NCBI GenBank assembly: GCA_964016885.1
Contig: CAXHJY010000326.1
Location: 1-31,589 of the forward strand
DNA: 31,589 nt
From: Eledone cirrhosa
Taxonomy: Eukaryota
Direction of reading: 5' to 3'
Below the pieces are notes generated by a model. That model was not told the origin of the DNA. It saw only the letters and a program-made list of their open reading frames with translations, and did not search any database. A program made the translations under genes and the position numbers. Numbering within the stretch: the stretch's first letter is position 1; each line of letters begins with the position of its first letter. Shown piece by piece: positions 19,670 to 24,520 of the stretch.

Positions 19670-20348
19670 TATCTATATATATATATATATATGTATATAT
19701 ATATATATATATGTGTATATATATATATATATATGTATATATATATATATATATGTATATATATATATATATGTATATATGTATATATATATGTATATAT
19801 ATATATATATATGTATATATATATATATATATATATGTATATATATATATATATATGTATATATATATATATATATGTATATATATATATATATATATGT
19901 ATATATATATATATATATGTATATATATATATATATATGTATATAAATATATATATATATATATATATATATATATATATATGTATATATATATATATAT
20001 ATGTATATATATATATATATATGTATATATATATGTATATATATATATATATATATATATATATATATATATATATATATATATATATATGTATATATAT
20101 ATATATATATATATATATATATATATATATATATATATATATATATGTATATATATATATATATATATATATATATATATATGTATATATATATATATAT
20201 ATATATATATATGTATATATATATATATATATATATATATATATATATATATATATATATATATATATATATATATATATATATATGTATATATATATAT
20301 ATATATATATATATATATATATATATATATATATATATATATATATAT
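19670..20348. repeat. (TA)n microsatellite
   Basis: Directly visible. Confidence 0.95.
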
Positions 20349-20411
20349 AAAAGACGTAAAATAAGAAAATTTTAAAGAATTTTAAAAAATTAACTTACTT
20401 ACTAAATTTTC

Positions 20412-20491
20412 ACTCCAACTAATTAGTTTCTGCAATGGTATAGACAGTTACGTAATAAAACTGTCGAGAATTCATTGCGTCATCAGGGAGT
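20412..20491 (-). ncRNA. Type I hammerhead ribozyme, array copy 1
   Basis: Reverse complement of 22630-22711 with a 2-nt deletion in the stem II region. Confidence 0.8.
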
Positions 20492-20952
20492 CTATTCTCA
20501 GCTAAGTCTCCAGGCAATGCGCGGACACTGGGGACTCATATAAAAATAATAATAATTCGGTAGATGGAACAGCTAGCGGGGACTGGATTCCATGTACTGA
20601 AAAGCTCGCTGCCTCTGGTCAAATGGCTGATTCTAAAGAATCAATCACATGACACTGAGGCTAGTCGGTGGGAGTGGGATGGTAAGATGACAGAAGCCTA
20701 CTATCACACCAATAAATTAGTAGTGGTTTTGGCAGGTTTGCTCAACAAATAAGTAATTTGGAGAAAAATATAGAGAATTTAGTATATCTACTAACATATG
20801 CGTACAGATGTATGCTAATGCCAGCAAATACACAGGTTATGTCATAGTACCTAGGTGGTTCAATGCAGGAGGATGCAGAACAATAATATAAAAGACGTAA
20901 AATAAGAAAATTTTAAAGAATTTTAAAAAATTAACTTACTTACTAAATTTTC

Positions 20953-21034
20953 ACTCCAACTAATTAGTTTCTGCAATGGTATAAAGACAGTTACGTAATA
21001 AAACTGTCGAGAATTCATTGCGTCATCAGGGAGT
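20953..21034 (-). ncRNA. Type I hammerhead ribozyme, array copy 2
   Basis: Reverse complement of 22630-22711. Confidence 0.8.
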
Positions 21035-21495
21035 CTATTCTCAGCTAAGTCTCCAGGCAATGCGCGGACACTGGGGACTCATATAAAAATAATAATAATT
21101 CGGTAGATGGAACAGCTAGCGGGGACTGGATTCCATGTACTGAAAAGCTCGCTGCCTCTGGTCAAATGGCTGATTCTAAAGAATCAATCACATGACACTG
21201 AGGCTAGTCGGTGGGAGTGGGATGGTAAGATGACAGAAGCCTACTATCACACCAATAAATTAGTAGTGGTTTTGGCAGGTTTGCTCAACAAATAAGTAAT
21301 TTGGAGAAAAATATAGAGAATTTAGTATATCTACTAACATATGCGTACAGATGTATGCTAATGCCAGCAAATACACAGGTTATGTCATAGTACCTAGGTG
21401 GTTCAATGCAGGAGGATGCAGAACAATAATATAAAAGACGTAAAATAAGAAAATTTTAAAGAATTTTAAAAAATTAACTTACTTACTAAATTTTC

Positions 21496-21577
21496 ACTCC
21501 AACTAATTAGTTTCTGCAATGGTATAAAGACAGTTACGTAATAAAACTGTCGAGAATTCATTGCGTCATCAGGGAGT
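21496..21577 (-). ncRNA. Type I hammerhead ribozyme, array copy 3
   Basis: Reverse complement of 22630-22711. Confidence 0.8.
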
Positions 21578-22038
21578 CTATTCTCAGCTAAGTCTCCAGG
21601 CAATGCGCGGACACTGGGGACTCATATAAAAATAATAATAATTCGGTAGATGGAACAGCTAGCGGGGACTGGATTCCATGTACTGAAAAGCTCGCTGCCT
21701 CTGGTCAAATGGCTGATTCTAAAGAATCAATCACATGACACTGAGGCTAGTCGGTGGGAGTGGGATGGTAAGATGACAGAAGCCTACTATCACACCAATA
21801 AATTAGTAGTGGTTTTGGCAGGTTTGCTCAACAAATAAGTAATTTGGAGAAAAATATAGAGAATTTAGTATATCTACTAACATATGCGTACAGATGTATG
21901 CTAATGCCAGCAAATACACAGGTTATGTCATAGTACCTAGGTGGTTCAATGCAGGAGGATGCAGAACAATAATATAAAAGACGTAAAATAAGAAAATTTT
22001 AAAGAATTTTAAAAAATTAACTTACTTACTAAATTTTC

Positions 22039-22120
22039 ACTCCAACTAATTAGTTTCTGCAATGGTATAAAGACAGTTACGTAATAAAACTGTCGAGAAT
22101 TCATTGCGTCATCAGGGAGT
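22039..22120 (-). ncRNA. Type I hammerhead ribozyme, array copy 4
   Basis: Reverse complement of 22630-22711. Confidence 0.8.
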
Positions 22121-22629
22121 CTATTCTCAGCTAAGTCTCCAGGCAATGCGCGGACACTGGGGACTCATATAAAAATAATAATAATTCGGTAGATGGAACA
22201 GCTAGCGGGGACTGGATTCCATGTACTGAAAAGCTCGCTGCCTCTGGTCAAATGGCTGATTCTAAAGAATCAATCACATGACACTGAGGCTAGTCGGTGG
22301 GAGTGGGATGGTAAGATGACAGAAGCCTACTATCACACCAATAAATTAGTAGTGGTTTTGGCAGGTTTGCTCAACAAATAAGTAATTTGGAGAAAAATAT
22401 AGAGAATTTAGTATATCTACTAACATATGCGTACAGATGTATGCTAATGCCACCGACTAGCCTCAGTGTCATGTGATTGATTCTTTAGAATCAGCCATTT
22501 GACCAGAGGCAGCGAGCTTTTCAGTACATGGAATCCAGTCCCCGCTAGCTGTTCCATCTACCGAATTATTATTATTTTTATATGAGTCCCCAGTGTCCGC
22601 GCATTGCCTGGAGACTTAGCTGAGAATAG

Positions 22630-22711
22630 ACTCCCTGATGACGCAATGAATTCTCGACAGTTTTATTACGTAACTGTCTTTATACCATTGCAGAAACTAA
22701 TTAGTTGGAGT
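22630..22711 (+). ncRNA. Type I hammerhead ribozyme, array copy 5, GUU cleavage after 22706
   Basis: Stem I ACTCC/GGAGT. Core CTGATGA (22635-22641). Stem II GCAATG/CATTGC extended by GACAGTT/AACTGTC. GAAA (22693-22696). Palindromic helix III A-CTAATTAG-T. Confidence 0.85.
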
Positions 22712-23172
22712 GAAAATTTAGTAAGTAAGTTAATTTTTTAAAATTCTTTAAAATTTTCTTATTTTACGTCTTTTATATTATTGTTCTGCATCCTCCTGCA
22801 TTGAACCACCTAGGTACTATGACATAACCTGTGTATTTGCTGGCATTAGCATACATCTGTACGCATATGTTAGTAGATATACTAAATTCTCTATATTTTT
22901 CTCCAAATTACTTATTTGTTGAGCAAACCTGCCAAAACCACTACTAATTTATTGGTGTGATAGTAGGCTTCTGTCATCTTACCATCCCACTCCCACCGAC
23001 TAGCCTCAGTGTCATGTGATTGATTCTTTAGAATCAGCCATTTGACCAGAGGCAGCGAGCTTTTCAGTACATGGAATCCAGTCCCCGCTAGCTGTTCCAT
23101 CTACCGAATTATTATTATTTTTATATGAGTCCCCAGTGTCCGCGCATTGCCTGGAGACTTAGCTGAGAATAG

Positions 23173-23254
23173 ACTCCCTGATGACGCAATGAATTCTCGA
23201 CAGTTTTATTACGTAACTGTCTTTATACCATTGCAGAAACTAATTAGTTGGAGT
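23173..23254 (+). ncRNA. Type I hammerhead ribozyme, array copy 6
   Basis: Same sequence as 22630-22711. Confidence 0.8.
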
Positions 23255-23714
23255 GAAAATTTAGTAAGTAAGTTAATTTTTTAAAATTCTTTAAAATTTT
23301 CTTATTTACGTCTTTTATATTATTGTTCTGCATCCTCCTGCATTGAACCACCTAGGTACTATGACATAACCTGTGTATTTGCTGGCATTAGCATACATCT
23401 GTACGCATATGTTAGTAGATATACTAAATTCTCTATATTTTTCTCCAAATTACTTATTTGTTGAGCAAACCTGCCAAAACCACTACTAATTTATTGGTGT
23501 GATAGTAGGCTTCTGTCATCTTACCATCCCACTCCCACCGACTAGCCTCAGTGTCATGTGATTGATTCTTTAGAATCAGCCATTTGACCAGAGGCAGCGA
23601 GCTTTTCAGTACATGGAATCCAGTCCCCGCTAGCTGTTCCATCTACCGAATTATTATTATTTTTATATGAGTCCCCAGTGTCCGCGCATTGCCTGGAGAC
23701 TTAGCTGAGAATAG

Positions 23715-23796
23715 ACTCCCTGATGACGCAATGAATTCTCGACAGTTTTATTACGTAACTGTCTTTATACCATTGCAGAAACTAATTAGTTGGAGT
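23715..23796 (+). ncRNA. Type I hammerhead ribozyme, array copy 7
   Basis: Same sequence as 22630-22711. Confidence 0.8.
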
Positions 23797-24255
23797 GAAA
23801 ATTTAGTAAGTAAGTTAATTTTTTAAAATTCTTTAAAATTTTCTTATTTTACGTCTTTTATATTATTGTTCTGCATCCTCCTGCATTGAACCACCTAGGT
23901 ACTATGACATAACCTGTGTATTTGCTGGCATTAGCATACATCTGTACGCATATGTTAGTAGATATACTAAATTCTCTATTTTTTCTCCAAATTACTTATT
24001 TGTTGAGCAAACCTGCCAAAACCACTACTAATTTATTGGTGTGATAGTAGGCTTCTGTCATCTTACCATCCCACTCCCACCGACTAGCCTCAGTGTCATG
24101 TGATTGATTCTTTAGAATCAGCCATTTGACCAGAGGCAGCGAGCTTTTCAGTACATGGAATCCAGTCCCGCTAGCTGTTCCATCTACCGAATTATTATTA
24201 TTTTTATATGAGTCCCCAGTGTCCGCGCATTGCCTGGAGACTTAGCTGAGAATAG

Positions 24256-24336
24256 ACTCCTGATGACGCAATGAATTCTCGACAGTTTTATTACGTAACT
24301 GTCTTTATACCATTGCAGAAACTAATTAGTTGGAGT
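24256..24336 (+). ncRNA. Type I hammerhead ribozyme, array copy 8
   Basis: Same sequence with one C missing from the CCC run before TGATGA (possible homopolymer error). Confidence 0.75.
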
Positions 24337-24520
24337 GAAAATTTAGTAAGTAAGTTAATTTTTTAAAATTCTTTAAAATTTTCTTATTTTACGTCTTTTA
24401 TATTATTGTTCTGCATCCTCCTGCATTGAACCACCTAGGTACTATGACATAACCTGTGTATTTGCTGCATTAGCATACATCTGTACGCATATGTTAGTAG
24501 ATATACTAAATTCTCTATAT

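Follow-up and report, generated by a model that had tools for sequence, protein, structure and literature searches.

The 31,589-bp stretch analysed here (the window) is the whole of contig CAXHJY010000326.1 (C353), an unplaced contig in the 3.0-Gb assembly of Eledone cirrhosa (GCA_964016885.1), and it contains a 543-bp repeat that carries a hammerhead ribozyme motif. We propose, with a probability of about 0.6, that this repeat is a young insertion of a protein-free hammerhead element in a (TA)n microsatellite, built as two arms by the reverse transcriptase (RT) and endonuclease of a Penelope-like element (PLE), with two-site priming on one 543-nt RNA monomer that was probably circular. The components of this proposal carry different weight. 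We are confident that the repeat is a retrozyme moved by a PLE-type reaction, and a single event with two-site priming is likely. A template of unit length is reasonably probable, and we lean, somewhat more cautiously, towards that template having been a circle.

Layout of the insertion and its hammerhead motif

The 543-bp unit (37% GC) is present ∼7.7 times between 20345 and 24520 and is flanked by long (TA)n tracts (19668–20349 and ∼24516–29900), as a first-pass annotation made from the letters alone had described. The same annotation saw near-identical units in tandem. Their identity was borne out, with no substitutions over 12,948 pairwise positions. The units differ by six small deletions alone, which are likely to be sequencing errors since nearly all lie in homopolymer runs. 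The purely tandem arrangement was not upheld: the left arm lies on the minus strand and the right arm on the plus strand, i.e. the units form two head-to-head arms with four hammerheads per strand. With unit position 1 set at 22707, the first base past the predicted cut, arm A has its 3′ end at position 72 (site A) and is truncated at its 5′ end at position 135, and arm B has its 5′ end at position 287 and its 3′ end at position 190 (site B). Site B lies 118 nt deeper into the unit than site A, and this distance is the counterpart of the PLE tail. Both 3′ ends run into (TA)n, and any target-site duplication would be masked by (TA)n on either side. Instead of the one multimeric cDNA first supposed, the insert therefore comprises two inverted arms, each begun at a fixed internal site. 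The sequence flanking the insert is unique in the assembly, in which neither an empty allele nor a duplicate of the locus was found.

In agreement with the earlier view that the unit holds no credible protein gene, its stop-to-stop frames reached at most ∼64 aa, apart from an 81-aa frame in a unit with an indel. No open reading frame (ORF) for RT plus GIY-YIG domains was found in the unit or the window, and a tblastn search of the window with nine genomic RT-type ORFs gave no match.

Eight hammerhead cores are present in the window, each arranged as ACTCC-CTGATGA-stem II-GAAA-palindromic stem III-GUU-GGAGT, confirming the complete motif read in each unit at the outset, including the first plus-strand cut predicted after 22706. 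The hammerhead at this cut combines a 5-bp stem I, the CUGAUGA core, a C-A mismatch followed by a 6-bp stem II with an inner hairpin, GAAA and a 10-nt palindromic stem III. The CUGANGA, GAAA and NUH core elements, three helices and an open stem I define it as type I. The 19-nt cleavage-site motif occurs 9,522 times in the assembly, compared with 0 for the reversed control, and matches are dispersed over many contigs. We then aligned 45 of 82 distinct family copies, excluding truncated, junction-spanning and some core-mutated copies. The proposed stems were paired in 94.4% of 990 cells, as high a value was found in 0 of 500 shuffles, and slid controls gave at most 42%. Two-sided pair changes numbered 77 compared with 26 in shuffles, with the caveat that relatedness inflates such counts. 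As the aligned rows were chosen by their core and stem I/III patterns, invariance there is partly selected. Stem II was unselected, and in its outer part three of six pairs change on both sides (C-G/U-A/A-U, U-A/G-C and A-U/U-A).

The 10-nt palindrome of helix III does not form a hairpin alone, and its self-duplex has a predicted energy of −9.0 kcal/mol. A palindromic helix III that works as a dimer has been described for animal and PLE hammerheads (PMC4209133). Folding of the monomer was better than that of shuffled sequences (z −5.6, or −6.4 for the circular form with 30 shuffles), but the antisense strand folded just as well.

Table 1. Coordinates of the insertion, its hammerheads and the predicted monomer in the window
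Feature	Position	Strand	Remarks
Left (TA)n tract	19668–20349		Likely target microsatellite; overlaps terminal ATAT of arm A
Arm A	20345–22452	−	2,108 bp, 3.9 units (409+543+543+541+72)
Inversion junction	22450–22452		5′-to-5′ join, 3-bp overlap, not a palindrome
Arm B	22450–24520	+	2,071 bp, 3.8 units (257+543+542+540+189)
Right (TA)n-rich tract	24516–29900		∼5.4 kb, end approximate
Hammerhead	20412–20491	−	2-nt deletion in stem II insert; predicted cut between 20417 and 20416
Hammerhead	20953–21034	−	Predicted cut between 20958 and 20957
Hammerhead	21496–21577	−	Predicted cut between 21501 and 21500
Hammerhead	22039–22120	−	Predicted cut between 22044 and 22043
Type I hammerhead	22630–22711	+	Predicted cut after GUU at 22706
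Hammerhead	23173–23254	+	Predicted cut after 23249
Hammerhead	23715–23796	+	Predicted cut after 23791
Hammerhead	24256–24336	+	Predicted cut after 24331; C run short by one C, likely sequencing error
Full cut-to-cut monomer (predicted circle)	22707–23249	+	543 nt; lineage-marking bases 22994 (288, C) and 23015 (309, T)

Elsewhere in the window, positions 9100–9260 form a near-perfect long inverted repeat, a hairpin resembling a miniature inverted-repeat transposable element (Rfam MIR7993, 70 bits, under the cut-off of 100). An Rfam search of the whole window gave sub-threshold matches alone, nearly all of them microRNA models on microsatellites (among the best 150 of 495). Another interspersed repeat family occupies 16870–17420 (∼550 bp; 7,162 candidates for the query), and an interspersed repeat of ∼92 bp (19576–19667; 850 candidates) directly adjoins the left (TA)n tract.

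Insertion ends across the family and the proposed link to Penelope-like elements

A hand count of 65 cleavage-site motif matches in the first 40 loci suggests that the family comprises 5–6 thousand loci. These 40 loci, taken in chromosome order along C1 and 71–98% identical to the window unit, consisted of 22 head-to-head pairs, 16 single-armed loci and 2 compound loci. Of their 68 arms, 61 had 3′ ends at site A or B and 55 had 3′ ends adjoining a dinucleotide repeat. The fixed ends of the copies lie 72 nt (A) and ∼190 nt (B) past the predicted cut. In contrast to these, the 5′ ends were scattered, with only 3 of 68 within 5 nt of the predicted cut. The permuted ends named as a check in the first-pass annotation were not supported. 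Sites A and B both end in ATAT, which is unpaired in the predicted circle fold, suggesting that these bases anneal to the target.

A strict regularity concerned the pairing of the two sites. Head-to-head junctions from 101 loci (four pooled sets, three of which were chosen by similarity, length or pattern) comprised 62 A+B, 0 A+A, 0 B+B and 6 unclassified cases (n = 68). Under independent site choice, an outcome with A+B alone has a probability of ∼2e-19; therefore, each inverted pair represents one event in which each site was used once. Three tail-to-tail adjacencies were found, all within the in-order set, where the compound loci fall. At the junctions, the 5′ ends lay at unrelated positions, with −12 to +40 nt of overlap or filler. 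At G000:C12:17.00–17.46 Mb, eight near-identical copies of one two-arm insertion (L009, L010, L012, L017, L018 and L022–L024) occur at ∼60-kb spacing; this is a segmental tandem duplication and was counted once.

Site B has a further signature. Between element and flank, 13 of 41 terminal site B rows have 4–17 CT repeats, with the flank being mostly (TA)n, compared with 0 of 61 internal site B copies with more than two CT repeats. One row classed as terminal (L120) is actually internal, and the window's own B end is free of (CT)n. We infer that (CT)n results from reiterative copying of a UCUC template at initiation. Insertion into pre-existing (CT)n could explain a few cases, e.g. L009.

An inversion might instead arise by self-priming on an antisense template, without priming of both target strands. 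This was proposed for rotifer Penelope elements, which have palindromes at the inverted junction (PMC3846280), and predicted folding energies are about equal for the antisense (−138.2 kcal/mol) and sense (−135.5 kcal/mol) units. We regard this origin as very improbable for the family, because its junctions are not mirror palindromes, the 5′ ends are at unrelated positions (135 and 287 in the window), and self-priming alone accounts for neither the strict A+B pairing nor the confinement of (CT)n to outer B ends.

At least 10,596 GIY-YIG candidates (150 scored) were detected in the genome. Sampled PLE ORFs encode RVT_1 and GIY-YIG domains with a C-x4-C-x2-C linker, which is a mark of Neptune/Nematis (PMC8557442). 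The PLE protein proposed for the insertion is most likely of the Neptune/Nematis type. In two such PLE families of this genome, copies likewise terminate at two sites in (TA)n and have tails of 33–40 nt.

Several PLE loci were recorded in their own right. L071, L074, L076 and L082 (L117/L118-type, a Neptune/Nematis-type PLE) have two end sites into (TA)n and a 33-nt tail. By eye, the L117/L118-type PLE has a variant hammerhead core with U3/A8 for C3/G8 and a 6-nt palindromic helix III, and the L113/L119 family has a more degenerate version of that core. PLE ORFs are inverted head-to-head, like the retrozyme arms, at L106:1850–4865 and L116:3295–5490. An L113-type PLE copy has (TA)17 at its 3′ end, and right after this lies a divergent retrozyme copy (L120:3159–4400, the same place as L088), which may be chance use of a common target. 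The match in L109 is likewise a retrozyme copy near a PLE. Local alignment of the unit with 20 PLE 3′ regions gave nothing convincing: the best hit, in 1 of 20, was equalled in 2 of 100 shuffles. An apparent resemblance of the L117/L118 family end to site A was consequently unsupported. Short-stem hammerheads that share this helix III were also sought; among 45 matches, those inspected were deletion variants of the 543-bp family or chance.

The family also includes a satellite. At C28:8,782,836–8,982,190, ∼367 units form a 199-kb array in a single orientation with ∼2% mutual divergence, and 307 of 336 full units retain the hammerhead core. The array has a site B end into (TA)19, and at its other end a 206-bp inverted arm has a site A end into (TA)12 (G000:C28:8,782,639–8,982,190 with this arm; L213 and L173–L192). 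Its flanks are the two arms of one small inverted-repeat element, i.e. the array lies within the (TA)n of that element. Since both insertion ends are kept, the satellite represents an A+B insertion of the ordinary kind, in which arm B was amplified afterwards. Its existence raises in-place amplification and long linear transcripts as rival origins for the insert in the window.

According to the first of these, a short two-arm insertion later grew in place through unequal exchange, or the assembler overstated the number of its units. The growth of one C28 arm to ∼367 units after insertion sets a precedent, arms longer than two units are rare (1 of 68 in the in-order set), and the window contig is small and unplaced. 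However, both window arms are long and free of substitutions, which would require two expansions before any mutation, and arms of 3–6.4 units are present on chromosome-scale scaffolds. We therefore consider this origin improbable. An assembly or fold-back read artefact is also disfavoured: the ends obey the A+B rule of the family, the two flanks differ, long arms occur on scaffolds, and short-read contigs contain many other strand-switch joints.

The template and a candidate donor locus

Among the 68 in-order arms, 26 are longer than one unit and read through the cut site. Because arms cross this site freely, the template was not one linear monomer copied once. Unit divergence was flat across register (2.38% between opposite in-register arms and 2.27% between adjacent units), and in 21 of 23 multi-unit loci some variants are carried by every unit. 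Variants in multi-unit loci comprised 117 that were fixed, 52 partly shared and 312 single. A separate template for terminal units was rejected, as the excess divergence is regional (positions 65–180: 1.69% vs 1.48%). Long arms were seen at L144:3730–7538 (G000:C1604; ∼7 units) and at L153:945–4418 (G000:C1; 6.4 units). In the latter, variants are common to non-adjacent units, which may reflect gene conversion or a mixed template.

At 12 sites, the window departs from the majority of the young family, and it does so identically in all its units. Its nearest relative is L005/L151 (G000:C2:134,059,692–134,060,643), a locus of 337+543+72 bp (1.75 units) in which two hammerheads flank exactly one unit. 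This middle unit differs from the window unit at position 49 alone. Upstream of it, the partial unit of L005 has markers 330, 346, 500 and 521 in common with the window, family alleles at 288 and 309, and additionally one private substitution and one private deletion. In agreement, a 29-mer covering 288C and 309T has eight copies in 3.0 Gb, seven in the window and one in the cut-to-cut unit of L005. The simplest reading of these sequences is that the 288 and 309 changes arose in the middle unit after L005 had inserted, and that no other unit than this one was excised and served, repeatedly, as the template. The donor–daughter match supports, but does not prove, copying from an excised monomer, probably circular, and lends support to the monomer template suggested in the first-pass annotation. 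Since L005 has only 1.75 units, a plain linear transcript of it cannot yield 3.9 identical units.

A longer linear transcript could have done so. The same PLE-driven two-arm insertion might have been templated by an uncleaved multimer from a young array of uniform units that the assembly lacks, with no need for ribozyme cutting. Repeats are often collapsed in assemblies, and long arrays exist in this family (6.4 units on C1, ∼7 units on C1604 and ∼367 units on C28). We nevertheless consider this origin unlikely, since the assembly contains the window haplotype at just one other place and there is no register effect between arms. The C28 satellite was rejected as the donor because 0 of its 336 full units have either derived base of the window.

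Alternatively, the excised monomer stayed linear, with the RT jumping end to end across cleaved molecules. End-to-end template jumping is known for R2-type RTs, and this route fits the donor–daughter match equally well. It is improbable in our view, because jumps among the transcripts of thousands of loci should mix haplotypes, whereas the window's eight units carry a single haplotype, and in 21 of 23 loci some variants are fixed throughout the locus. In addition, the unit junctions are exact, with no bases gained or lost, and there is no clustering of 5′ ends at the cut site (3 of 68).

Several observations weigh against copying of a self-cleaved, unit-length template by a PLE. First, the hammerhead is non-optimal, having a GUU cleavage site and a C-A mismatch in place of a Watson–Crick pair at the base of stem II (10.1-11.1) in all 45 aligned copies. 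PLE hammerheads usually leave a base unpaired at the 5′ end of stem II (PMC4209133), and other PLE hammerhead candidates in the same genome have U-U at this pair. The Rfam hammerhead families, which the first-pass annotation had named as a check, gave no match to 22400–23600 at E ≤ 10, probably due to the 54-nt stem II insert. Among Xenopus retrozyme dimers, one of nine was cleaved in vitro (Li et al. 2026), and hammerhead cleavage was dispensable for insertion by the Anolis element PAc in vitro (PMC11167929), a result that also favours a linear multimer. Second, no short-read contig bridges the junction at 22450 of this small, unplaced 31.6-kb contig. The short-read runs mismatch the window at fixed sites and so probably come from a different individual. 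Third, no autonomous PLE with the same hammerhead or ends was found in 30+20 GIY-YIG loci (∼7 families) or in the repeat loci checked. Equally, the possibility raised at first that the unit is the pseudo-long terminal repeat of an autonomous PLE found no example in this limited sample of 50 GIY-YIG loci. Fourth, both L005 units have G at position 49 (window 22755) where the window has T. This position varies between T and G independently within at least seven other loci, and may be a mutation hotspot or a systematic sequencing effect. A template switch in L005, with the true donor missing from the assembly, could give the same pattern. Finally, the 52 partly shared variants in older loci require later gene conversion or heterogeneous templates.

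Allowing for these points, we suggest that the two-armed insertion arose as follows. A locus with two hammerheads, of which L005/L151 is the best candidate, would have been transcribed. Its hammerheads, probably paired via the palindromic helix III, would then free the cut-to-cut unit, which may be ligated to a circle by analogy with known retrozymes. A PLE protein would nick both (TA)n strands, and each 3′ end would anneal to the unpaired AUAU at site A or B and be extended; the fixed sites and A+B pairing were observed directly, and the enzyme is a putative one. Each cDNA would pass the ribozyme junction several times and halt at random, and the two ends would be joined by microhomology. This last step fits the observed read-through and scattered 5′ ends, with rolling around a circle as the presumed mode of copying.

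Relation to known elements and significance

The 543-bp repeat is an animal retrozyme of the kind without long terminal repeats (a non-LTR retrozyme), an element class that is already known and of which it is an ordinary member. It has more than two consecutive hammerhead units (4+4), no coding capacity and low GC, and it is dispersed. The initial view was supported on several points: the repeat is young, non-coding and dispersed, belongs with the animal retrozymes, carries a type I hammerhead whose palindromic helix III would suit cleavage as a dimer, and shows a PLE footprint. Its description as a replicon was unsupported. Similarly to the family, the retrozymes covered in PMC7229834 and by Li, Clavereau and Pollet (2026, bioRxiv 10.64898/2026.07.22.740005) are non-coding, have a single type I hammerhead in each unit, a GC content under 45% and PLE co-occurrence, and range from dispersed monomers to multimers and, occasionally, very long arrays (300 units reported). 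At 543 bp, the unit exceeds the 150–450 bp typical in PMC7229834, but not unusually long as first thought, since it falls inside the range of consensus lengths reported by Li et al. 2026 (51–972 bp). Circular RNA and cleavage have been demonstrated for some published retrozyme families, whereas both are predictions for the 543-bp family. In contrast, two inverted arms with fixed start sites, microsatellite targeting and a donor–daughter pair do not appear in the accounts given in PMC7229834 and Li et al. 2026; the latter sampled no mollusc, and its supplements may list further families. The literature searched, which covered few subscription papers, likewise held no description of fixed-site two-armed retrozyme insertions or of a donor–daughter pair.

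Endonuclease-containing PLEs of the Neptune/Nematis type and Naiad (PMC8557442; PMC3846280) resemble the family in their partial tandems, inverted 5′-truncated head-to-head copy and tail at one end, in a (TA)n bias that masks target-site duplications, and in a hammerhead just upstream of their 3′ ends. Unlike them, the 543-bp element has no ORF, a tail of ∼118 nt compared with 30–40 nt, a repeat unit that is the whole element, and a sequence unlike that of the PLE 3′ regions sampled in this genome. A close parallel is PAc (Poseidon, Anolis; Frangieh et al. 2024, PMC11167929), a predicted dimer with two internal RT start sites downstream of a hammerhead, which cuts and extends both target strands at AT-rich targets. 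The start sites of PAc are not homologous to its target, whereas sites A and B have a terminal ATAT that complements a (TA)n primer and are in this respect closer to the telomere-repeat annealing of Athena/Coprina PLEs (PMC8557442). The satellite 2 hammerhead repeats of newt and axolotl (PMC7229834) share a weak helix III predicted to need dimerisation and, with C28, a satellite-scale array. The unit differs from them in its greater length and 54-nt stem II, and the C28 satellite visibly began as a single two-arm insertion.

What the locus contributes is the donor–daughter link, the (CT)n stutter and the origin of a satellite. On a bolder reading, which we offer tentatively and rate somewhat below even, the window and C2:134.06 Mb are a parent–daughter pair that records a whole retrozyme cycle. 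One unit would have been excised, circularised and copied for ∼4 rounds by each subunit of a dimeric PLE RT, with AUAU priming on both (TA)n strands at the two fixed sites. The same enzyme would stutter in a telomerase-like manner at initiation, adding (CT)n and perhaps (TA)n, and one insertion would have seeded the 199-kb satellite. If true, this would be direct genomic evidence for circle-templated, PLE-driven retrozyme integration, which has so far only been proposed (PMC7229834; Li et al. 2026). These results bear on how animal retrozymes re-enter genomes and on how PLEs make tandem and inverted insertions, and the family offers testable coordinates for both questions: two start sites, the A+B rule, a candidate donor with marker bases, a stutter signature and a satellite with surviving ends.

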